Source of the DNA: Acidimicrobiia bacterium
GTDB lineage: Bacteria > Actinomycetota > Acidimicrobiia > Spongiisociales > ZC4RG35
NCBI GenBank assembly: GCA_028285585.1
Contig: JANQOU010000002.1
Coordinates: 203,263-267,262 of the forward strand
Direction: 5' to 3'
Length of the DNA stretch: 64,000 nucleotides
In this document: one piece after another, positions 6,870 through 31,354 of the stretch
Layout: every line of letters begins with the position of its first letter
Position numbering within the stretch: the first letter of the stretch is position 1
Made by a program: the position numbers and the translations under genes
The notes under the pieces: generated by a model
Told to the model about the DNA's origin: nothing
Seen by the model: only the letters and a program-made list of their open reading frames with translations
Database searches by the model: none

Positions 6870-8531
6870 TTGGGCGCTCTGAGAGTCTTCTTCCTCACCA
6901 CCATGCTGCTGGCCGCGCTCGTCTTGACTGCGTGCTCCGACTTCTTGGGTGACACGCCAGCCGGAACCAACGGCTCTACAGACGATGCAACCACAACAAC
7001 AGGCAACGCCGACTGCCTTCGTCAGAGCGAAGCCACGACCGAGATCGACACGGGCACCAACTCGAGAGACGCCTTGGCTATTGCCGGCAAGCTGTTCGTC
7101 TGCGCCGAGCACGTCGTAGTTGTCGCCGAAGACGACCTCAACCAGGTTGCTGTGGCGGCACAACTGGCCGCCTCCCTAGGAGGCCCGCTGTTCTTCCCCG
7201 ACGATCGACTGCCTGCCGAGTTGGGACGTCTTCACCCGGAGCACATTCACGTGGTCGGCGAGTTGCAGATCACCACCCCACCCGAAAGTGAGCTGCTGAC
7301 CTTGACCATGGCCGAAGCCGTGCAAGCAGCAGCTGATGCGCTGGGCGTGATCCAGACGGTGACACTGCCGGCCACGCCGAGCGCCACATCGATCATCGAA
7401 GCCGTCGCAGCGATCAACGCCCGTGACCGTGTGATCACCGCCGAGACCGCCACCGGATCTCCCTCCATCGACATGCGCGCGCTGATCGATGGATTGAATC
7501 CTCCAGCGGAAGCTGCCGAGGTGTGGATCACCGACGCCTCGGATCCGACTGGTGTCCTGCTGTCAGCCGCCTCGGGCAGAGCTGTTGGAGCTGCCACCGT
7601 TGCCATGGACCCCGCCAACGCACTCGAAGATCAGACGATCGGTCAGATCCTTCGCTCGACAACCGCGGCCTCCCGGCTCATCGGCTTGTCCGAGATCGAC
7701 GACTGGGAGCTTGCCCTCCTCACCGGCGGCCCAGAACTGCCGGGTGGAGGCTTCCTCATCCTTCCCGACGCCCAAAGACGCTACGTCGCCTTCTACGGCC
7801 ATCCTGAGACGACCGCTCTCGGTGTCCTCGGCGAGCAGGATGGCGAGGCGACCATCGAGCGGATGCGGCCGTTCCTGGAGGAATATGCGGCCGACGGTGC
7901 TCTGGTGATCCCGACGTTCGAGATCATCGCCAGCGTGGCCAGCGCCGGAGCCGGGGACGACGGCAACTACAGCTTCGAGTGGCCTGCCGAGACCTTCAAT
8001 GACCTCTTCGAGGCAGCAGAGCGGCACGACGCATACATCCTGTTGGACCTTCAGCCTGGACGGGCCGACTTCCTGACCCAGGCCAAGTTCTACGAAGACC
8101 TGCTTCTGCGTCCCAACGTGGGCCTGGCGCTGGATCCGGAGTGGCGACTGAAGCCCGATCAGGTTCATCTGGAGCAGGTGGGCACCGTCACCGCAGCCGA
8201 AGTCAACACGGTCATCGAGTGGCTCGCCGACCTGATTCGGGACAACGAGCTGCCCCAGAAGATGCTTCTGCTCCACATGTTCCGCACATCGATGATCACC
8301 GACCGCGAGTTGCTGGTCGATCGGCCTGAGCTCCAAATCGTGATCCAGATGGATGGCGATGGGACCGAGCCTCAGAAGGACGCTACGTGGAGTCGGCTTC
8401 GCGAAGGGTTTGAAGACGCCTTCTGGGCTTGGGGTTGGAAAAACTTCTTCGATGAGGACGAGCCAGGCCCGCCCACTCCGCTGTCGACCATCTCTAAACA
8501 GCCGACACCCGTTTACGTCAGCTACCAGTAG
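6870..8531 (+). CDS. Secreted lipoprotein with cell-wall-binding-like repeats and a C-terminal TIM-barrel-like (GHL) domain, hypothetical
   Basis: Signal peptide plus lipobox (LLAALVLTACSD). The listed ATG at 6810 overlaps the SRAP gene, so an in-frame TTG at 6870 is proposed. Repeats of the form LAIAGKLFVCAEHVVVVAEDD. Confidence 0.4.
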   Translation: MGALRVFFLTTMLLAALVLTACSDFLGDTPAGTNGSTDDATTTTGNADCLRQSEATTEIDTGTNSRDALAIAGKLFVCAEHVVVVAEDDLNQVAVAAQLAASLGGPLFFPDDRLPAELGRLHPEHIHVVGELQITTPPESELLTLTMAEAVQAAADALGVIQTVTLPATPSATSIIEAVAAINARDRVITAETATGSPSIDMRALIDGLNPPAEAAEVWITDASDPTGVLLSAASGRAVGAATVAMDPANALEDQTIGQILRSTTAASRLIGLSEIDDWELALLTGGPELPGGGFLILPDAQRRYVAFYGHPETTALGVLGEQDGEATIERMRPFLEEYAADGALVIPTFEIIASVASAGAGDDGNYSFEWPAETFNDLFEAAERHDAYILLDLQPGRADFLTQAKFYEDLLLRPNVGLALDPEWRLKPDQVHLEQVGTVTAAEVNTVIEWLADLIRDNELPQKMLLLHMFRTSMITDRELLVDRPELQIVIQMDGDGTEPQKDATWSRLREGFEDAFWAWGWKNFFDEDEPGPPTPLSTISKQPTPVYVSYQ

Positions 8532-8549
8532 ACCTGCCAGTATCGGGGC

Positions 8550-9530
8550 ATGACGAAATTCGCCTACTTCGCCGGCCATGAGCAATGGCAGCCGGAAGAG
8601 CTGGTGGAGCACGCCGTGCTCGCCGAAAAAGCCGGGTTCGACATGGTGGTTGTCTCCGAGCACTTCCACCCCTGGGTTGACGACGCGTCGGCGTCGGGCT
8701 TCGCCTTCTCGACCATCGGAGCTATGGCCGCCGCCACCAAGAGCCTCGAGTTCACCACCGGTGTCACCACTCCCCTGTTTCGCTATCACCCGGGTGTAGT
8801 GGCGCAAGCCGCGGCCACTCTCGACCGACTCTCGGGCGGCAGGTTCAACCTCGGTGTGGGCACGGGTGAAAACATCAATGAGGGGCCCCTCGGCTACGAG
8901 TTCCCCAACTATGCCGAGAGGAACGCTCGGATGACCGAGTCGCTGGAGATAATGCGAAGGCTCCTCGACGGCGAGAAGCTCTCTTTCGACGGTGACTACT
9001 ACACGACCGATCGAGCCAAGCTCTACTCGCCTCCCATCGGAGCCGTCCCGATCCTGATGGCAGCGGGCGGGCCGAAGTCGGCGACCTTGGCCGGCCAGCG
9101 TGCGCAGGGCGTGATCACCTCGGTCAAAGATCCCGCCGAGACCTTCGAGCGAGTCATCGATCCACTCCGCGCAGCCGCCAACGACACCGGCAACCCAGAT
9201 CCGATAGTCCTTGCCACTCGCTGGTCGCTGTTCGCTGCCGACGAGGAAGAGGCGTGGGAGGCGTTGTTCTCCTGGAGAGGCTTGAGAGCACCCGGCCGTC
9301 TCGAAGCTGTCGACCCTCAGACTCTTCGAGAGCGGGCCGACGAGCTGCCCCGGGAGGAAGTGCTCGGCAGGTACAGCCTGGTGAACAGTGTCGACGACAT
9401 CGTTGAGACCTACCGGCCGCTAGTCGACGTCGTGGGTGCCGACATCGTCACGTTCCAGATGGCGTCACTTGATCAACCGGCGCTGATCGAACTTCTCGGA
9501 ACCGAGGTGGTGCCGAGGCTGAGGGGCTAG
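8550..9530 (+). CDS. Luciferase-like monooxygenase (LLM) class, F420-dependent-type oxidoreductase
   Basis: GFDMVVVSEHFH, GGRFNLGVGTG...EF and the LLM TIM-barrel pattern. Confidence 0.75.
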   Translation: MTKFAYFAGHEQWQPEELVEHAVLAEKAGFDMVVVSEHFHPWVDDASASGFAFSTIGAMAAATKSLEFTTGVTTPLFRYHPGVVAQAAATLDRLSGGRFNLGVGTGENINEGPLGYEFPNYAERNARMTESLEIMRRLLDGEKLSFDGDYYTTDRAKLYSPPIGAVPILMAAGGPKSATLAGQRAQGVITSVKDPAETFERVIDPLRAAANDTGNPDPIVLATRWSLFAADEEEAWEALFSWRGLRAPGRLEAVDPQTLRERADELPREEVLGRYSLVNSVDDIVETYRPLVDVVGADIVTFQMASLDQPALIELLGTEVVPRLRG

Positions 9531-20680: not shown

Positions 20681-20925
20681 CGGACACGAGGCCCAGACTT
20701 TCGCGTTGAGGATGTTCTCGACTGCGCTGCACCAAGTTGCGCATGACGCCACCTCATGCAGCCCGAACGAAGGTCTGACGGCTTCATCTGCCACCTTGGA
20801 ACCGGAGGTCACATCAAACACTCGCCGTTGCCGCCAATTCGTGTGACTCCTAATTATGAAGGATTCCCTTGACACTTCGTTCATCTCGCACCACCATCCG
20901 AATCTATGAAGGATTCTCTTCACAA

Positions 20926-22840: not shown

Positions 22841-24055
22841 CTAGAGCCGGAGTCGCTCGTAGCGCCCCAATAGCTCCTCCAGAGGGGAACTTGAGAGCGG
22901 AAAGACGGTCTTCGCAAGGGCGTGTTCCACCCTTTCGTAGGCCGTATCGAGCATCACGTCAGCTCCAGGGATTCCCCAGGACTCAACCTCTGCGCGCAAG
23001 TGGGCCCCGGTCACCGACTCAGGCCGCAACACATCCCGATCAACTGGCTGGGCCAAGTGGCGAAAGTGACTTGGGTAGTGGTACGTCGGAATCACGTCAT
23101 ACGCCGGAGCGAGCTGGACGGTTCCGTCCGAGAGATGCAACAGCGAAAGGTTCCGGGCATGTGCATCCGCATTGCCGATTGCCACATTGACGACCAGGAT
23201 CGTGACGAAGGCTTGCATGTCTTCCGCAGGGGTCGCCGAGTTCTCGTAGACAACTGAAGCCAGACGCGAGAGGGCCGTTTTGGAACGATGGCTACTCGCA
23301 TACTTCTCACCGGGGCGCACACCCAGCGCCATGCACAGATCCTCCTGATGTAGCCGCCGGTGCTCGAGATCAGCATCAGGTACTCGGTCGTATCGGTGAA
23401 CCACGAGGGTTCGGATGCCCTCGAACTCCTCGATCGACCAATCCGGGGTGGGGACGCTCGCAAGTCGCAAGACGGCTAATCCCCAGGACTCCAGATCTAC
23501 AAGGCCAGGCCACGCGCTTGGCTCCGGCTTCAGAATGACGGCGGACGGGATGCTGAAGCTCGGGTCGACGTAATCGCCGTTGGTCAAGCCAAGGGGCAGT
23601 TTGGATTGGACGCCTGGCAGAGACAGCCGCACTTCGGTTTCCTTGGACACCCCGAGAGGTGCCGTCGGCAGCCCACGGAGACGAGCGGCAATGTCGGACT
23701 CCGTGAGCGGTGCCGGCTCTTCGCCGAGCTTGTACAGGGGTGGATCTGCGTCGGATTCCGCCGCCACTACAGCTCCGATCGTCTCCCGACCGAGTTCGAG
23801 CAACAGATTCTCCTGAGATCCGAACTCACCCATAAGCACTGCTAGGGCATCACCTTCGGGGAGCAGGCCTTCGACGACGGCAGCGGTGGGCCCCGGCGTG
23901 AGAGTCGCCGTCGTCAGAGGTTGGGACACCGTGAACACTCTCGAGCCGAATCCCCACCGGTCTATCGCTTCCTCCACGTAGGACAGTCGCATTCGGGAAC
24001 GACGCTCGAAAGCAATGCGAGCAAGACGTGTCCCATATAGCCAGAGATCAACCAC
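22841..24055 (-). CDS. hipA: HipA-family Ser/Thr kinase toxin
   Basis: N-terminal LPGVQSKLPL (HipA_N), then HQEDLCMALG...KY and the catalytic VAIGNADAHARNLSLL. Confidence 0.85.
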   Translation of the reverse strand: MVDLWLYGTRLARIAFERRSRMRLSYVEEAIDRWGFGSRVFTVSQPLTTATLTPGPTAAVVEGLLPEGDALAVLMGEFGSQENLLLELGRETIGAVVAAESDADPPLYKLGEEPAPLTESDIAARLRGLPTAPLGVSKETEVRLSLPGVQSKLPLGLTNGDYVDPSFSIPSAVILKPEPSAWPGLVDLESWGLAVLRLASVPTPDWSIEEFEGIRTLVVHRYDRVPDADLEHRRLHQEDLCMALGVRPGEKYASSHRSKTALSRLASVVYENSATPAEDMQAFVTILVVNVAIGNADAHARNLSLLHLSDGTVQLAPAYDVIPTYHYPSHFRHLAQPVDRDVLRPESVTGAHLRAEVESWGIPGADVMLDTAYERVEHALAKTVFPLSSSPLEELLGRYERLRL

Positions 24056-24284
24056 GATTGCGCTCCAGCCGAAGCTCCCCCTCCAGCAGTCGGATGGCTC
24101 GGAGAATCAACAGAACCTGCGCCGAGACGTCGCCGTCCTCGATGCGAGAAAGTCTCTGTCTCGTCGTGCCAAGGGATCGTGCGATGTCCACCTGGGTGAG
24201 GCCGCGCTCCTCTCTCATGGCTCGGAGTGCACTTCCCAAAGCCTTGGGACTCTCTATGCGCCACGTGTGATGTTTTTGTTCCAT
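24048..24284 (-). CDS. hipB: HipB-like XRE-family HTH antitoxin
   Basis: GLTQVDIARSLGTTRQRLSRIEDG is the HTH_XRE motif. An SD (AAGGAG) sits 7 nt upstream of the ATG at 24284. It overlaps the hipA start by 8 nt. Confidence 0.75.
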   Translation of the reverse strand: MEQKHHTWRIESPKALGSALRAMREERGLTQVDIARSLGTTRQRLSRIEDGDVSAQVLLILRAIRLLEGELRLERNRG

Positions 24285-24302
24285 CGTCTCCTTCCGACCG
24301 AT

Positions 24303-24357
24303 TGGCATAATACTGTACCATTTCGGACTGGAGGCGTAAAGGAATAGTTTTATGCCA
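24303..24357. promoter_or_regulatory. Putative hipBA promoter/operator: perfect inverted repeat TGGCATAA-N39-TTATGCCA that spans a TATTAT -10 element
   Basis: AT-rich 60 bp region immediately upstream of hipB. The palindrome arms lie at 24303..24310 and 24350..24357. Confidence 0.4.
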
Positions 24358-24872
24358 TGATCCATGACGACGTCCATTCGATCAGTGAGGCTCATGCCGC
24401 TCACCTCGTCGATCTCACCCTTGTGACCGCATCCACGGAGGGACAAGACGCGCTGACCAAAGACGATCAGACCGTCGAGACAAAGGCCACCACTCGCCGC
24501 TCAGTCGCACTAGAGGCCTCAGGACACAAGCCCGACTTGCTGGTGGTTCTGTCGCTGGATCCAGAGACCCTTCAACCGACACTCGAATACTTCGGTCCAG
24601 CAGCACCTGTATGGCAGATTGCCGGCAAGCCACAGAAGATTGGTCAGCGGCAGGTGTCACTCTCGAAACTGCCCTCAACTCATTAGCGGCTCCCGTCCCT
24701 TCGTTTGGTGGGGCTAAGTAGACAGAACACGAACCACGCCAGAGCCCTCGCTGGACGCCTCCAACACACACTGACGCATAACGTCCGACGCCCTGCCCGG
24801 TCAAGTCGCCGATGTGTGCCGTTGTGCCTGTCTGATGGAACCTGCGTCGTTTCGGTGACGTTCTTGAGGGGA

Positions 24873-26042
24873 ATGAGGCGGTTGACTCTTCTCGCTGCAC
24901 TCGTATTGGTGAGCGCTGCCTGTACGTCAGAGGCAGATCCAGCACCGACCTCGGCCGATTCCACGCCAGTCACCGCTGTTCCTGCGACCACTTCGACATC
25001 CTTCGCCCCGACGCCGACGGACCCGCCCGGCACCACGTCGACATCGTTACTGGTTTCGGATAACGAACCATTCGAGCTGGGTCCGCTTGCTCCTCGTGGT
25101 GGCCATTCTGTCGTCTGGACCGGAACCGAGATGATCGTGTGGGGTGGATGGGGAGACGAGACAGGCGATAACGCATATGCCGATGGGGCCGCCTTCGATC
25201 CCGTTGCGAACAAGTGGAGAGTCATCGCTGAATCGCCCCTTCCTCGATCCTGGTACCACTTGGCTACTTGGACCGGATCGGAGATGCTGGTCTTCTCGGG
25301 ATTCTCGGCCGCTGCATACGACCCGGTAGGCGACGTTTGGCGCACCCTGGCCGCACCACCGTTTCCCTTGCGTCGCCAAGGGTTCCTCGACCCGATCAGC
25401 GGCGTCTGGGCACAAGACACCTACGTCGCTTGGGATTCATTCGACGATCGAGTTGTCGCCTACTCACCGGCAACGGATGAGTGGACCGAGATGCCACCCG
25501 TAGAGATAGACGTTACGAGAGGTGTGCTGCGCTTCACCGGCGAGTCGATATTCGCATTCGGCACAGACGTCAACACCCGGCGACCCATCCTGCAGGGCGC
25601 GGAGTTGAAGGGAACATCCTGGATCCCGACTCCATCAGTCCAGTTCTGGACCTCGGAGAATGCTCACGGGGCAAGGCCGAATCTCGTCGCCTGGGCAGGA
25701 GACCGGTTTGTAGCTTGGAGCGACGGAGGCCGTGGATCGGAAGCGTTCATGTACACACCCGGAGACGATGCCTGGACACCCACCGGACCAAACACGGTCT
25801 TCGGCTGCGAGTACTCGTCATCACCCACTGAGATGGACACGCGAGTGTTTGTCCCATCCTGTGGTGGACAATCGATATACGACTCCCAAACCGATCAATG
25901 GACTCGTCTCAACATCGATGGACTCGGTGAAGGTCGTGACACGGTTTGGACCGGCAAAGAGATTCTCGTCTGGGGTGACACCTGCTGCTTCGGAGCAGGT
26001 GGCGAACCCTTCGACGTCTCCGCCTGGCGATATCGACCATGA
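24873..26042 (+). CDS. Kelch/beta-propeller repeat lipoprotein, hypothetical
   Basis: Lipobox LVLVSAACTSE. Repeated VWTGxEMxVWGG / WxxxP blades. Confidence 0.5.
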   Translation: MRRLTLLAALVLVSAACTSEADPAPTSADSTPVTAVPATTSTSFAPTPTDPPGTTSTSLLVSDNEPFELGPLAPRGGHSVVWTGTEMIVWGGWGDETGDNAYADGAAFDPVANKWRVIAESPLPRSWYHLATWTGSEMLVFSGFSAAAYDPVGDVWRTLAAPPFPLRRQGFLDPISGVWAQDTYVAWDSFDDRVVAYSPATDEWTEMPPVEIDVTRGVLRFTGESIFAFGTDVNTRRPILQGAELKGTSWIPTPSVQFWTSENAHGARPNLVAWAGDRFVAWSDGGRGSEAFMYTPGDDAWTPTGPNTVFGCEYSSSPTEMDTRVFVPSCGGQSIYDSQTDQWTRLNIDGLGEGRDTVWTGKEILVWGDTCCFGAGGEPFDVSAWRYRP

Positions 26043-26215
26043 CAACGCACGAAGCCTCGGCTGCCAACCCGCCCACAACCGGTAGTGCAAGCGCTCGCCC
26101 ACTCCGACTGCAAGACGAGGATTGCCGCGGAGATCGGAGGCTGGGACTCAAGTTGAGCAAACAGTCGGCCGAGCGGCCAGACAGATATTCGGATAATCGG
26201 AAACGTCAGTAGAAC

Positions 26216-26262
26216 GATGACAGACTCGAACCGCCGACCCCTGCCTTGTAAGGGGGGCAATC
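26216..26262 (-). repeat. Degenerate direct repeat of the 3' roughly 48 nt of tRNA-Val. Putative attR of an integrated islet.
   Basis: tgac(a/g)gactcgaaccgccgacccctgccttgtaaggg is identical to tRNA-Val positions 29031..29069 apart from one mismatch. The flanks are diverged. Confidence 0.65.
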
Positions 26263-26339
26263 AACAGCCGGGGAGGGCCCATCGTGACGGGCTTTCTCGC
26301 CAATCGGTGGCCTCCGGGGGAACACGAAACGAACCTTCC

Positions 26340-27134
26340 CTATCCACCCTCGGTGCGCTTGACCATGTACAGGAAGAACTGCCCCTCCCATCTCTTCTCG
26401 ACAACACCGTCGGCAGACAGCCGATCCAGAGTTTCCTTTGCGCTTGCATCGAGGGCCTTGTGAGCCTGGCCTCGATACCTCCCCATCGGTATCTCGGCAC
26501 GGTGGGCCATCACATCAGCTAACTCCCCCACGGAAGTCCACTCCTCACCATAAACGGTCTCACCGAATGTCGAGTTCTGGAACTCCTCGCCAAAAACGTG
26601 ATCTAGCCAGCCACGAAAACGCTGTTCGGCTCGCCAGGAAATGGCCCATTGCGCAGCAAGTCCGGTAAGCACGACGAGATAGATCATGTTGAAGTAGGTG
26701 GACCAACTCGACGGCCCAATGTCAAGGAAGAGTTCTTCGAAAGATGACCGCTGAGTCCATAGAAAGGTCGTGAGAGCGGCAACAGATCCATACGGGATCA
26801 GCACGCGATTTCGATAGCTGGCCACGCTCTCGCGCCGTGCCGTAACGCTCGCTGCCTCCCTGGCTGGGGCGTTTGGGCTTGCGGGTCGAGTAGCAGCTTC
26901 AATGAGCTTCTCTAGGCTCGCCTGAGGCAACGGCACGAGCGGAGCGGGAGCTTTCAGACGTTGCCTGATGTCGAGAACTTGGCGGAACAGCTCTTGGTCT
27001 GTTTCTTCGCCGTCAACGGCTTGATGATCCATCAACCATTCATCGACCGCGCTTTGTACCTCGTCGATGGTGTCTCCGGAGACAATCACGCCGAGTTCTG
27101 CTAGCTCCTGAACCCCGTCTTCAAGATGTCCCAC
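26340..27134 (-). CDS. Hypothetical 2-TM membrane protein with an acidic N-terminal domain and a C-terminal soluble domain, islet gene 3
   Basis: 264 aa. TM1 is VAALTTFLWT and TM2 is MIYLVVLTGLAAQWAISW. No known motif. Confidence 0.45.
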   Translation of the reverse strand: MGHLEDGVQELAELGVIVSGDTIDEVQSAVDEWLMDHQAVDGEETDQELFRQVLDIRQRLKAPAPLVPLPQASLEKLIEAATRPASPNAPAREAASVTARRESVASYRNRVLIPYGSVAALTTFLWTQRSSFEELFLDIGPSSWSTYFNMIYLVVLTGLAAQWAISWRAEQRFRGWLDHVFGEEFQNSTFGETVYGEEWTSVGELADVMAHRAEIPMGRYRGQAHKALDASAKETLDRLSADGVVEKRWEGQFFLYMVKRTEGG

Positions 27135-27436
27135 TCCAGATCCTTCCGCGACCGATTGCTACGAACTGCATACCCCCAAGCTACGCCGATGCTTTAGAGC
27201 TAGAGGCGGCGGAGTAGACAGCTGGGTTCGACCCCGGCGCCCTGGCCGAAGCCCGAGAGAAACGCCGGGAGGAAGCGCTGGCCCTCGTGGAGTGGTTCCG
27301 GGGCCTCTGAGGCCACCATCGGTACCGTCCGAGATCCACGGGAGCCACAGGACGGTACCTCCCTGGCCTCGACGACCCCTCCGGGCTATTCGGGGGCCTA
27401 GAGGTAGCTAAGGGTCGCCCGGAGGACTTTCTTGGA

Positions 27437-28210
27437 TCAGTCGAGGAGTCGACGACGGACCACCTCTTCCTGCCCGAGATGGGTGATCCTGTAGTCGTCG
27501 GACTCTACGAAGCCGTGTACAAACAACCGGGCAACTAGAGCGTTAAGGGTCCGCCGCAGATTTGTACGCATTGTCGGTCGAACCCAGTCTCTGAGATTTA
27601 TATACGAAACGCGTTGCGGCTCCTGCCAATACAGCAAGACCAGCACGTAGTCGGAAGCGGGGAGGTCCCTAAGGATGACCGGAAAGTCGTCCATAACCTG
27701 GATGGCCGGGATGGCCTTGGCCATGATTCCGTCGATGGCAACTTGCACTTCGTCATGAGTGATAGTCGAGTCCTTCTCACGGACTAACTCCGCAAGAACC
27801 CAGTCCATGCAATGAACCACCAAAGTGGCATCCTGAAGACCGGCATCGACAGGTCCCAGATGAGCACTGTCCCTCTTATTCCGGATGTCGTATATCAGCC
27901 TGAGGGTCCTTGGGATGTGTAGACGGATGGCGTCGCTGTGCGAGCCGTTCCGAGGAAGGTTCCCGAAATCTCTAACCAGAGAATCAGAACTTGGCAACGT
28001 GTCCCCGATCGGGGTGTAGGACCCTGTGGTTTCGAACTGGAGTATTCGAAAGACCGCCTCGCTGAAGCGCCCTCCTTCGACACGGTTTGGCCGATGGTCG
28101 CTCCGCGCGAATCGGTCCTTTGCCTCTTGGTATGAGTCGGCCAGCTCCTCGACCAGAACGACTGGCACACCGGAAGCCTTCAGGCCGCGGGCAATCTCAT
28201 CAAGAGTCAT
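27437..28210 (-). CDS. HEPN-like (R-x6-H) domain protein with a C-terminal winged-helix-like domain, islet gene 2
   Basis: LIYDIRNKRDSAHLG fits the HEPN Rx4-6H motif. The C-terminus (YINLRDWVRP...LRRTLNALVARLFVHGFVESDDYRITHLG) is wHTH-like. It overlaps the upstream gene by 11 nt. Confidence 0.45.
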   Translation of the reverse strand: MTLDEIARGLKASGVPVVLVEELADSYQEAKDRFARSDHRPNRVEGGRFSEAVFRILQFETTGSYTPIGDTLPSSDSLVRDFGNLPRNGSHSDAIRLHIPRTLRLIYDIRNKRDSAHLGPVDAGLQDATLVVHCMDWVLAELVREKDSTITHDEVQVAIDGIMAKAIPAIQVMDDFPVILRDLPASDYVLVLLYWQEPQRVSYINLRDWVRPTMRTNLRRTLNALVARLFVHGFVESDDYRITHLGQEEVVRRRLLD

Positions 28211-28817
28211 CCGACTGGCCAGCCAGCCTCAATACCAGCTCCTTGAAGTCATCTTCCCTGCCTGCCTTGAGGTCCACTCGCTTCGACCTTGTGGGCCCAA
28301 GGTACGACACCGAAGGGTTGGCCCTTATGTACCTAGAAAAGTTCGTGTCGGCTGCCTTAAACGCCTTGGCAGACGAGCGGGCGTCCTCAGAAGAAAGGTC
28401 CTGACCCAACCCCAACCTATGGGCGCCTGCCAGCAGTGTGGTTAGCGCGATTGCTCTCTCCTTCGTGTTGTCGCCGAGGTCACGACCTCGGACGTTGAGA
28501 CCTACGCGCTGGCTGTCGGCTTGGTAGAAGAAGACTTCCTTTAGATGCTCGACCGGCACCTCTGAATTTCTCGACAGCTCGTCAAAGAAGCCCCCTTCCG
28601 AAACCCCTAGCGACTCCTGGTCTGACTCTGGCTCCGCCTTCCGAACCGGTTTACCGGGCGGTGAAGGAGGCTTGACGTCGGAGGGTGCAACTCCCTCGGC
28701 AAAGGCGAGCTTGAGGCCTTCGCTTTGCAGATGCTCTGGTAGCTCAGCTGCCAGAACGTCCTCATATGCCTTTCTAAGACGGTCCGCAACTGATTCTTCA
28801 CTTCCCATGCTTGGCAA
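28200..28817 (-). CDS. Hypothetical protein with a Pro/Glu-rich N-terminus and a conserved-looking C-terminal domain, islet gene 1
   Basis: 205 aa. It starts 208 nt downstream of the tRNA-Val 3' end. Confidence 0.4.
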   Translation of the reverse strand: MPSMGSEESVADRLRKAYEDVLAAELPEHLQSEGLKLAFAEGVAPSDVKPPSPPGKPVRKAEPESDQESLGVSEGGFFDELSRNSEVPVEHLKEVFFYQADSQRVGLNVRGRDLGDNTKERAIALTTLLAGAHRLGLGQDLSSEDARSSAKAFKAADTNFSRYIRANPSVSYLGPTRSKRVDLKAGREDDFKELVLRLAGQSDDS

Positions 28818-29024
28818 TTCTAGGCAGTAATCACATTGTTGTCATTCGATGAAGCCGGATGTTGTCGCTCGTCAAGGGGAGCCACGGGGGAGCAAAAACC
28901 CTTCGGGGAAGCACCGGGGAGCACTAGGTGTACGAGGGTCGCAAGGCCCTGTATAGGTCTCGGACCACCGAAAGAGGCCGACGGGACGGGCCTTTCTGGC
29001 CTCTCGACCCGTCGTGACGGGTTG

Positions 29025-29098
29025 TGGGCGTTGACGGACTCGAACCGCCGACCCCTGCCTTGTAAGGGCAGTGCTCTAGCCAACTGAGCTAAACGCCC
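29025..29098 (-). tRNA. tRNA-Val (anticodon TAC)
   Basis: Cloverleaf GGGCGTT/AACGCCC acceptor, anticodon loop CTTACAA, GGTTCGAGTCC T-arm. CCA is not encoded. Confidence 0.9.
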
Positions 29099-30424: not shown

Positions 30425-31354
30425 ATGGCAAAGCGGTCAATCGAAAGAGAAGTCAGCGACGAGGCGATCCGTCAGTACCTGGACGGCATCGGTGTCTACG
30501 AGCTGCTCACAGCAGAAGACGAGGTTCGTCTCGCCAAGGCCATCGAAAACGGCCGCAAGGCCGAGATCGCCCTCGAGTCCGAGAAGGACCAGTCGAAGCG
30601 ACGCAAGCTGCGTCAGATGGTCCGCGCCGGTGAGGAAGCCCGTCAGCACTTCATCCGGTCCAACCTCCGTCTCGTGGTTTCCATTGCCAAGCGATACGGC
30701 CATGCCAAGCTCCCCTTCCTCGACCTGGTTCAGGAAGGGAACCTGGGCCTGATCAGAGCTGTCGAGAAGTTCGAGTACCGCAAGGGCTTCAAGTTCTCCA
30801 CCTACGCCACCTGGTGGATCCGTCAGGCCATCACCCGAGCGATCGCCGACAAGAGCCGGACCATCCGGGTTCCCGTCCACATGATGGACACCATCACTCA
30901 GATGCACTCTGCCGAGACCAACCTCACCAAGCGGTTGGGCCGCAAGCCCACCGATGAGGAACTGGCCGAGGAGTCAGGCCTGACTGTCGAGAAGATCTTG
31001 GAAGCCCGGAAGGTGGCTCCCGAGCCGGTCTCCATCTTCGAGCCGGTCGGTGAGGACAACGCCACCATCGGCGACTTCATCGAAGACACCGAGGCCGCCG
31101 CCCCGTTCGAGCTGATCGCCTCCAAGCTCAACATCGAGAACCTCAAGTACGTGCTGGAGCGTCTCAACGAGCGGGAGCGCACCATCATCGAGATGCGTTA
31201 CGGCCTGGGCAATCGCGAGCCAGCGACTCTCGACGAAGTAGGCCGTCACTTCAACGTCACCAGAGAGCGGATCCGTCAGATCGAGGCCAAGGCTCTGGCC
31301 AAGATGCGTCACCCCTCGACGCCCGGCGGTCTTCGCGAGCTCGCCGTCTCCTAG
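30425..31354 (+). CDS. RNA polymerase sigma-70 family factor (group 2, SigB/HrdB-like)
   Basis: Region 2 [37 protein letters not shown], region 4 [23 protein letters not shown]. The long listed ORF 29120..31354 is an antisense run-through. Confidence 0.9.

Follow-up and report, generated by a model that had tools for sequence, protein, structure and literature searches.

What kind of element is a segment of 2.8 kb that ends in a partial copy of a tRNA gene, encodes no integrase and carries just three genes? The question is raised by a locus of an Acidimicrobiia bacterium (assembly GCA_028285585.1, contig JANQOU010000002.1), which we analysed within a window of 64,000 nt (203,263-267,262 of the forward strand); coordinates below are those of the window unless a comparison contig is named. 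The three genes are called g1, g2 and g3 here, and loci or contigs elsewhere that serve for comparison carry labels such as L010. An earlier reading, made from the letters of the DNA without database searches (the sequence-only reading), had taken the three genes for a cassette related to toxin–antitoxin (TA) or defence modules. The explanation that we consider probable is a decayed islet, or one that resembles a cis-mobilisable element (CIME), whose payload is an exchangeable pair encoding a HEPN toxin and its partner, of the TA or abortive-infection kind.

The islet is bounded on one side by tRNA-Val(TAC), which ARAGORN and Rfam (tRNA model, 71 bits) both find intact at 29024..29098, one caller starting it at 29025; like the islet features that follow, it is given on the minus strand. 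The 3' 45 nt of the gene (29024-29068) constitute the proximal attachment (att)-like core, and a copy of the tRNA 3' half at 26215..26254 constitutes the distal att-like repeat. Aligned with 29029-29068, the copy yields a direct repeat of 40 nt with 38/40 identity, spanning the tRNA from the anticodon stem-loop toward the 3' end, the last ~5 nt of the distal repeat having decayed. The sequence-only reading, which had seen the intact tRNA gene correctly, was right about a copy of ~40 nt, but it counted one mismatch where there are two and extended the repeat to 26262 when it ends at 26254. The repeat is not a product of chance, since its 21-nt core is confined to two sites in the 64 kb against an expectation of 0.01, which settles the check for chance matches that had been called for. 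Further structure is found just inside the two ends, in the form of the palindromes CCCGTCACGACGGG at 29008-29021, within the proximal arm described below, and CCCGTCACGATGGG at 26278..26291, 23 nt inward of the distal repeat. The palindrome CCCGTCNNGAYGGG occurs in the 64 kb solely at these two inner ends (expected 0.12), and the pattern CCCGTCACGA(C/T)GGG is located just within each islet end both in the window lineage and in the related contig L010. If the ends of the islet were joined, the palindromes would bracket the core in the way that binding sites bracket the core of an attP.

No integrase is found in the islet, which holds only three open reading frames (ORFs), g1, g2 and g3, all on the minus strand and without recombinase domains; that they run in the same direction is as the sequence-only reading had described. 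A limited test across the 64-kb window recovered neither a tyrosine-recombinase box-II motif nor a tblastn match to an integrase. The composition of the segment sets it apart, as had been claimed: its GC content is 58.5% compared to a window mean of 61.9% (standard deviation 1.4 for windows of the same size), which places it at the 0.7th percentile of such windows across the 64 kb, and GC at third codon positions amounts to 0.61-0.65 in the islet genes versus 0.76-0.83 in the FMO and sigma genes nearby.

Related genomes provide a view of the same site with other content. Six further contigs keep the adjacency of FMO and tRNA-Val, with the 3' half of the tRNA identical in 6/6; the FMO gene shows 60-70% identity in five of them and in the sixth, L100, matches over the last 29 residues only (90%), while WhiB and sigma-70 lie upstream in two. 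All six diverge from the window and from one another at the base right after the tRNA 3' end, and the content that follows in the contigs examined is unrelated, including an nSTAND1-kinase-WD40 giant, an FAD hydroxylase and an amino-acid permease. Counted over eight related contigs, the tRNA 3' half is likewise identical, and these too part from the window and from each other right behind its last base. Divergence at that very base puts the junction exactly at the tRNA 3' end and identifies the site as variable. The comparison with related genomes that had been proposed, with an empty tRNA-Val site as the means of defining the borders, has delivered the break in synteny but no empty site, in the strict sense, that shares the right-hand flank of the window among these relatives.

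The most informative relative is a second metagenomic lineage, represented by L010/L011 (identical to the TARA contig L012 over its 2,049 nt), that has this neighbourhood at 92-96% nucleotide identity; the stretch common to L010 and the window leads from the middle of a sigma gene through FMO and tRNA-Val to HipBA, MFS and ArsR genes. The distal repeat is better kept in L010, where its 45 nt include one mismatch and extend to the last base of the tRNA. An absence of any islet, the repeat being fortuitous or the genes ancestral, could be argued from the missing integrase and from a GC content just ~3 points below the surroundings. This is refuted by the statistics of a 38/40 repeat whose chance expectation is near zero, by the L010 repeat and by synteny that ends at the tRNA in six relatives, with the GC percentile pointing the same way, and we accord it practically no credence. 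The segment 26215..29023 is, with high confidence, what is left of an element whose site-specific integration targeted the 3' end of tRNA-Val(TAC). It shares with tRNA-integrated genomic islands the intact tRNA, the direct repeat at the far end, the absence from relatives and the break of synteny at the tRNA, and differs from them in having no integrase beside the att site. Like a CIME it has kept attL and attR (the distal site at 38/40 here and 44/45 in L010) and has no integration or transfer genes. Because the att-like ends are kept and the integrase is absent, the islet is either decayed or cis-mobilisable (CIME-like), and the alternatives named by the sequence-only reading, a decayed island or a satellite mobilised in trans, were the right ones to pose.

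A comparison of the interiors shows what the islet carries. L010 is devoid of g1 and g2; the window segment 28906..27226 corresponds to L010 4334..5986, which encodes a DUF5343 protein (Pfam E 4.7e-37) and a HEPN_Swt1 protein (E 5e-14) in the same layout, the partner gene being upstream and overlapping the HEPN_Swt1 gene by 4 nt. The exchangeable cassette of the window (27226..28906) consists of a predicted promoter, g1, g2 and a 3' non-coding tail, and has no nucleotide similarity to L010 4334-5986 besides a patch of ~70 nt. The swap is bounded by flanks that are 93-96% identical, namely the proximal conserved arm of 118 nt beside the tRNA (28906..29023; blastn 93% identity up to 28906) and a distal arm that extends from ~90 nt upstream of g3 through the distal repeat. 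The patch is made up of two conserved blocks (27 + 28 nt) right after the g2 stop codon (27336..27404; L010 5648-5718), which also directly follow the HEPN_Swt1 gene of L010 (blastn 80% identity over 72 nt); no significant secondary structure was detected in this ~70-nt element, and the blocks may be a terminator common to both cassettes, a recombination site or what is left of an earlier boundary.

The third gene, g3 (26340..27134, 264 aa), is lineage-specific and without a detectable family. Its single homologue among 5.8 billion proteins occupies the same position in L010 and shares 97% amino acid identity, and the differences between the two by codon position (2/4/17) demonstrate that g3 is truly coding. 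Could g1, g2 and g3 nevertheless form one system, a HEPN RNase with g3 as its membrane effector, as the sequence-only reading had supposed? The genes are co-directional in a single islet and g3 contains a single segment of moderate hydrophobicity (residues 147-167), but its best 19-residue Kyte-Doolittle window scores 1.46, under the usual transmembrane threshold of 1.6 and barely above the 1.33 of the soluble g2, so the two transmembrane segments ascribed to it are doubtful. The three-gene cassette does not hold: g3 is absent from all 86 other g2 loci examined, and since L010 retains it next to another cassette, the three genes do not form one unit. Between g2 and g3 there is a gap of ~300 nt, which also contains the swap boundary, and a g1 profile that excluded the g3 homologue P0122 disclosed no link between g1 and g3. 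We hold the three-gene system to be very improbable; g3 is a constant part of the islet, outside the g1–g2 module.

The predicted effector of that module is g2 (27437..28210, 257 aa). Its AlphaFold2 model (predicted local distance difference test score, pLDDT, 90) combines an all-helical N-terminal domain with the HEPN fold (residues ~1-163; 27722-28210) and a C-terminal winged helix (residues 170-252; 27455-27703). The modelled helical domain has the four-helix up-down bundle of the HEPN superfamily, whose members often bear an insert between helices 2 and 3, and in g2 an extra helix is placed between these core helices. The R-x6-H motif of HEPN type, R110-NKRDSA-H117 (RNKRDSAH codons at 27860..27883), runs in the model from the end of helix 93-110 into the next loop, and E51 belongs to the second core helix (helix 46-62). 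Motif position, E51 and insert all agree with the published account of HEPN domains, in which the motif is found at a helix end or loop, an acidic residue in helix 2 and an insert between helices 2 and 3 (PMC3710099). In 82 g2 sequences from at least ten phyla no variation is seen at Y107, R110, R113, H117, Q126, D127, W137, E141 or R144, and E51 is found in 79/79; such invariance across phyla argues for g2 as an active enzyme. Foldseek returned weak matches that include the HEPN domains of sacsin, TT1696 and Csm6, and a profile search of the PDB gave weak winged helix–turn–helix (wHTH) matches only, as did a scan of 50 g2 relatives at E<=1, chiefly to HVO_A0261_N (37/50). The HEPN-like domain and winged helix that the sequence-only reading had seen in g2 thus find their counterparts in the model. 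On structural and motif-based grounds, and on a predicted model, g2 is most likely a HEPN protein, and most likely an RNase that would arrest growth.

The g2 family is composed of 'hypothetical proteins' of ~255 aa that lack a Pfam domain, in at least 1,167 clusters. A scan of one genome per species yielded 104 relatives with identities of 38-52%, distributed over Actinomycetota, Acidobacteriota, Alpha- and Deltaproteobacteria, Chloroflexota, Planctomycetota, Verrucomicrobiota, Bacteroidota, bacteria of the candidate phyla radiation (CPR) and a metagenome-assembled genome (MAG) of Nitrososphaera, a wide and sparse pattern that, as far as sequences can tell, is one of horizontal spread. The relatives in the archaeal MAG L055 (Nitrososphaera) and in the CPR MAGs L058, L092 and L077 have 42-46% identity to g2, an unusually broad transfer for a protein as conserved as this, unless the MAGs are contaminated. 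The family was not found in 50,697 phage records or in IMG/VR, and a plasmid search gave one weak match, on a Natronomonas plasmid.

The partner gene g1 (28200..28808) overlaps g2 by 11 nt, in keeping with the overlap first reported. A promoter-like element, ATGACA-17 nt-TAGAAT (28817..28845), has 10/12 consensus matches, is the only one in 3.3 kb and ends 8 nt upstream of ATG 28808; as a consensus match only, ending at 28817, it makes ATG 28808 the more likely start of g1, on a leaderless transcript, and public gene calls begin there as well. The protein would then have 202 aa, and the 205 aa given by the sequence-only reading belong to an ORF that does exist, from TTG 28817. On the opposite strand within g1, an Rfam match to the c-di-GMP-I-GGC riboswitch (28695-28756, plus strand; 21 bits against a gathering threshold of 59, E 0.15) was considered and is almost certainly a chance match. 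The g1 model (pLDDT 89) starts with a helical hairpin (residues 7-42) and a low-complexity linker of low confidence (43-73), followed by a small unit of helix–turn–helix (HTH) plus hairpin (74-107) and a winged helix (118-204). The only matches listed below E 0.1 for any of the three proteins are two to g1, both weak and far under curated cut-offs (NepR E 0.04, SCO5555_fam E 0.085), and 66 g1 relatives scanned at E<=1 returned weak wHTH matches only. As had been said of the three proteins, no family can be named for them, there being no match at E<=0.01 to Pfam, NCBIfam, PHROGs or PADLOC for g1, g2 or g3. The sequence of g1 diverges fast, with 20-29% identity among actinobacterial counterparts, against 40-52% across phyla for the conserved g2, and phmmer found 83 clusters among 1.84 billion representatives.

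Despite this divergence, the association of the two genes is tight. A co-directional upstream partner abuts or overlaps the g2 start in 86 of 87 loci, the sole exception being cut by the contig end; L101-L105, the contigs with the nearest relatives of g2, are too short to reveal its context. The partners are ~110-300 aa long, most of them 170-230 aa, and fall into 43 of g1 type and 37 of a second family, g1b, which has a similar layout (N-terminal helix, Gly/Ala-rich linker, C-terminal domain). Some loci stack two or three small partner genes. Further small genes in the same direction precede the partner at L004 8857-9378, L014 1778-2293, L024 8782-9324, L038 8762-9316 and, in L047 and L054, at ~8340-9465, and include g1 paralogues as well as g1b-like genes; with one or two such genes the module can be three to four genes long. 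The 150 immediate neighbours of the pair are heterogeneous (a few integrases, ResIII, a methylase, and single matches to TIR, MADS, DpdF, PsyrT, SoFic and GajB-like models), and a test for enrichment among them revealed no recurrent third component, from which it follows that the pair is self-contained. As in type II-like TA modules, two adjacent co-directional genes that overlap or abut are always found together, and the putative antitoxin unites a DNA-binding domain with a disordered region. By its sequence context, g1–g2 is presumably a self-contained two-gene operon and the functional unit of the islet. The clearest genomic context for the pair is L008 (89-5301), a compact defence island at tRNA-Leu in an actinobacterium from a sponge metagenome, in which ThsB_TIR, an EcoRI-type methylase and GmrSD_N/HNH are followed by g1–g2.

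An alternative role for the two proteins would be that of DNA-binding regulators or maintenance proteins of integrative elements, active in the control of excision or partition, the helical domain of g2 binding a ligand or nucleic acid and cutting nothing. Both proteins have winged helices, their best matches include TubR and MarR/PadR regulators, g2 has no match to a HEPN sequence profile, and tRNAs and integrase remnants frequently lie close to the pair. The invariance of R110, R113, H117, E51, Q126, D127 and E141 over at least ten phyla, however, points to catalysis and not to a scaffold; at most of its loci the pair has no other mobile-element gene beside it, phages lack it and plasmids gave only that single weak match, and in L010 its place is taken by a bona fide HEPN_Swt1 pair. 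A regulatory or maintenance function is improbable on this evidence.

Turning to the carrier, is the islet of the window one of a kind? The pair recurs in small repeat-flanked islets of other genomes. At tRNA genes these are L058 856-2850 in a Paceibacterota MAG (tRNA-Leu(TAA); a 45-nt repeat from the anticodon loop to the 3' end; 1.9 kb), L085 9161-10782 in an uncultured bacterium (tRNA-Asp; 19-nt repeat; 1.5 kb), L003 7432-11175 in Streptomyces marispadix (tRNA-Pro; 43-nt repeat; 3.7 kb, with a DDE transposase fragment) and, beside tRNA-His, L023 8357-11580 in Micropruina (19-nt repeat; 3.1 kb). L063 8923-11087, in a delta-proteobacterial MAG, lies at a non-tRNA site (86-nt repeat; 2.1 kb), and the Bradyrhizobium islets L059 8031-10888 and L060 7899-10979 at the 3' end of a coding gene (60-nt and 109-nt repeats; ~3 kb). 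None of these mini-islets has an ORF of more than 200 aa besides the pair, which is nearly their sole cargo, and their gaps contain no integrase remnants, only the transposase fragment of L003. Exact flanking repeats of at least 19 nt occur at 5 of 65 testable loci and at none of 115 controls shifted by 5 kb, in which the longest repeat is 16 nt. This recurrence fits two readings, an addictive module that survives as islands shrink, or compact cis-mobilisable cassettes.

Under the second of these the islets would still be active, as minimal integrase-less cassettes moved by integrases or integrative and conjugative elements (ICEs) encoded elsewhere, in trans or by accretion, and tRNA-Val would be a hotspot for HEPN cassettes. 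At least seven such islets, flanked by repeats and independent of one another, are spread over different tRNAs and phyla, the borders can be as tight as in L085 (~130 nt before the pair, ~50 nt after it), two lineages have kept both att ends and both inner palindromes, the replacement between the conserved arms is clean and the CIME concept is an established one (PMC6323972). Set against this, no circular form, empty site or matching integrase has been observed, and long flanking repeats distinguish only five of the 65 testable loci; the distal repeat of the window deviates at two positions and its 3' end has decayed, a Mycobacterium locus speaks for ordinary decay with a truncated integrase that lies between the pair and tRNA-Ala, L003 contains a transposase fragment, and different tRNA targets would need different integrases. 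Active cassettes are a serious yet unlikely alternative. A bolder proposal, to which we grant slightly less, is that the pair is the payload of an unrecognised class of integrase-less, att-flanked micro-islets of 1.5-3.7 kb, moved in trans to the 3' ends of various tRNA and coding genes in a range of bacterial phyla, with the tRNA-Val islet as a hotspot that swaps alternative HEPN cassettes. In its stronger, more extreme version the pair itself would aid its own insertion or retention at tRNA genes.

How, then, might a decayed or CIME-like islet with a toxin/partner payload have arisen and worked? An element would have integrated at the 3' end of tRNA-Val(TAC) and left a remnant that keeps the att-like ends and inner palindromes and has no integrase; what remains would hold the constant g3 together with an exchangeable cassette of two genes behind a predicted promoter of their own. 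The g2 protein would dimerise and cleave RNA, as HEPN RNases do, g1 would bind and silence it, and the winged helices of g1 would repress the g1–g2 operon. Phage infection, stress or the loss of a labile g1 would free g2, whereupon growth would stop. An addictive module of this type would explain why the pair remains when islands shrink.

Several observations weigh against this scheme. Matches to defence models are wanting, in that no PADLOC-DB v2 model matches g1, g2 or g3 at E<=0.1, so that the PADLOC check suggested by the sequence-only reading came out negative, and no Pfam or NCBIfam HEPN model matches g2 or, at E<=1, any of 50 relatives. Profile comparisons found no relationship between g1 and DUF5343, between g2 and HEPN_Swt1 or between g1 and g1b, which leaves the argument for equivalent cassettes a positional one only. 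In addition, at most loci of the pair tRNAs are missing from the nearest 4 kb and long flanking repeats from the nearest 1.5 kb, the defence genes among immediate neighbours are scattered singletons only, and g1, with 202 aa, would be a large antitoxin. A toxin/partner function for g1–g2, derived from models, is nevertheless one that we rate somewhat above even chances, a little lower than the case for an islet with such a payload as a whole. The TA-like or defence-like role put forward by the sequence-only reading is still the best inference, and the pair may serve defence, addiction or both.

The surroundings of the islet were described by the sequence-only reading as a small accessory region with a Kelch gene and hipBA, a description that stands, and these genes are present. 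The Kelch gene (24705..26042) lies beyond the distal repeat, and a hipBA-like pair, HipA (22841..24055) and an HTH gene (24048..24446), is situated beside the islet. The Kelch segment (24391-26214) is an insertion or deletion relative to L010, which has 160 unrelated nt there, and starts exactly at the end of the distal tRNA repeat; a search for a third tRNA fragment bounding this segment found none. The hipBA-like pair is kept in both lineages, its HipA having weak matches to PADLOC PDC-M03A, and L010 has a second HipA/HTH pair. The latter is part of an extra ~5.2 kb in L010 (10837-16022) by which the ArsR-type regulator is separated from the next MFS gene (window ~20703-20773), a segment that also encodes an 881-aa RamC_N/Pkinase/LANC_like protein and a 128-aa ORF and has a 52-nt repeat at its junction (L010 14205-14256 = window 20773-20722). 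On the other side, similarity between the window and L010 falls inside the sigma-70 gene (30428..31354) at ~30889, from 93% nucleotide to 45-60% amino acid identity, and past this point NucS is found in L010, and WhiB in the window and in L093 and L094, the two relatives whose sequence extends far enough upstream. The drop denotes a recombination breakpoint, which implies that the shared neighbourhood of ~10 kb is a mosaic and that the two lineages are not simply sister strains.

If our account is correct, an unnamed two-gene family with more than 1,100 protein clusters, missed by current annotation and defence-finding tools, would join the HEPN toxin and defence repertoire. Its swap with DUF5343 + HEPN_Swt1 at one site would provide the first functional context for DUF5343, a family of which our literature search found no mention, and suggests a general class of 'partner + HEPN' cassettes; its recurrence as sole cargo offers a testable case of addiction or defence modules that survive or hitch-hike as integrative elements shrink. 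New HEPN candidates are common, and three points lift g1–g2 above them: the breadth of an unannotated family, the clean swap and the sole-cargo micro-islets.

Known systems supply close parallels to both payload and carrier. HEPN toxin modules such as HepT/MntA (type VII TA), RnlA/RnlB, LsoA/LsoB and AbiD/AbiF (Abi_2) resemble g1–g2 as small operons with an adjacent neutralising partner, the role predicted for g1, and a patchy horizontal spread in variable regions, beside restriction or TIR genes. They differ in that g2 has no curated HEPN profile match and has a C-terminal winged helix of its own, and in that g1, with its hairpin, disordered linker and tandem winged helices, is neither a nucleotidyltransferase like MntA nor RnlB-like. 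The DUF5343 + HEPN_Swt1 pair (PF17278 + PF18731) fills the same islet slot in L010 and likewise has a partner of ~200 aa upstream that overlaps the HEPN protein, although the Swt1 protein is shorter (193 aa compared to 257 aa in g2) and has no C-terminal winged helix. In AbiE, a system with a dual TA and abortive-infection role, the upstream gene for the winged-helix antitoxin AbiEi overlaps that of the downstream toxin AbiEii, which is a nucleotidyltransferase; g1–g2 shares the upstream winged-helix partner and the overlap, and a similar dual role is expected of it, but g2 is HEPN-like and not a nucleotidyltransferase, and AbiE-family models are absent from the Pfam and PADLOC matches.

With respect to the carrier, CIMEs are defined as attL/attR-flanked elements without integration or transfer genes (PMC6323972), and they and decayed tRNA-linked islands share with the islet the direct repeats at a tRNA 3' end and the absence of such genes; the islets are very small by comparison (2.8 kb here, 1.5-3.7 kb elsewhere) and known here from sequence, and the distal site is slightly decayed. 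The defence hotspots of P2 phages and P4 satellites, of ~1-5 kb, exchange unrelated small systems between conserved flanks (PMC9122126). The carrier at tRNA-Val differs from these in being a bare att-flanked islet with no recognisable phage or satellite, two alleles having been seen and a defence role being predicted, but the likeness is evident in the slot itself, in which unrelated small systems replace each other between conserved flanks.

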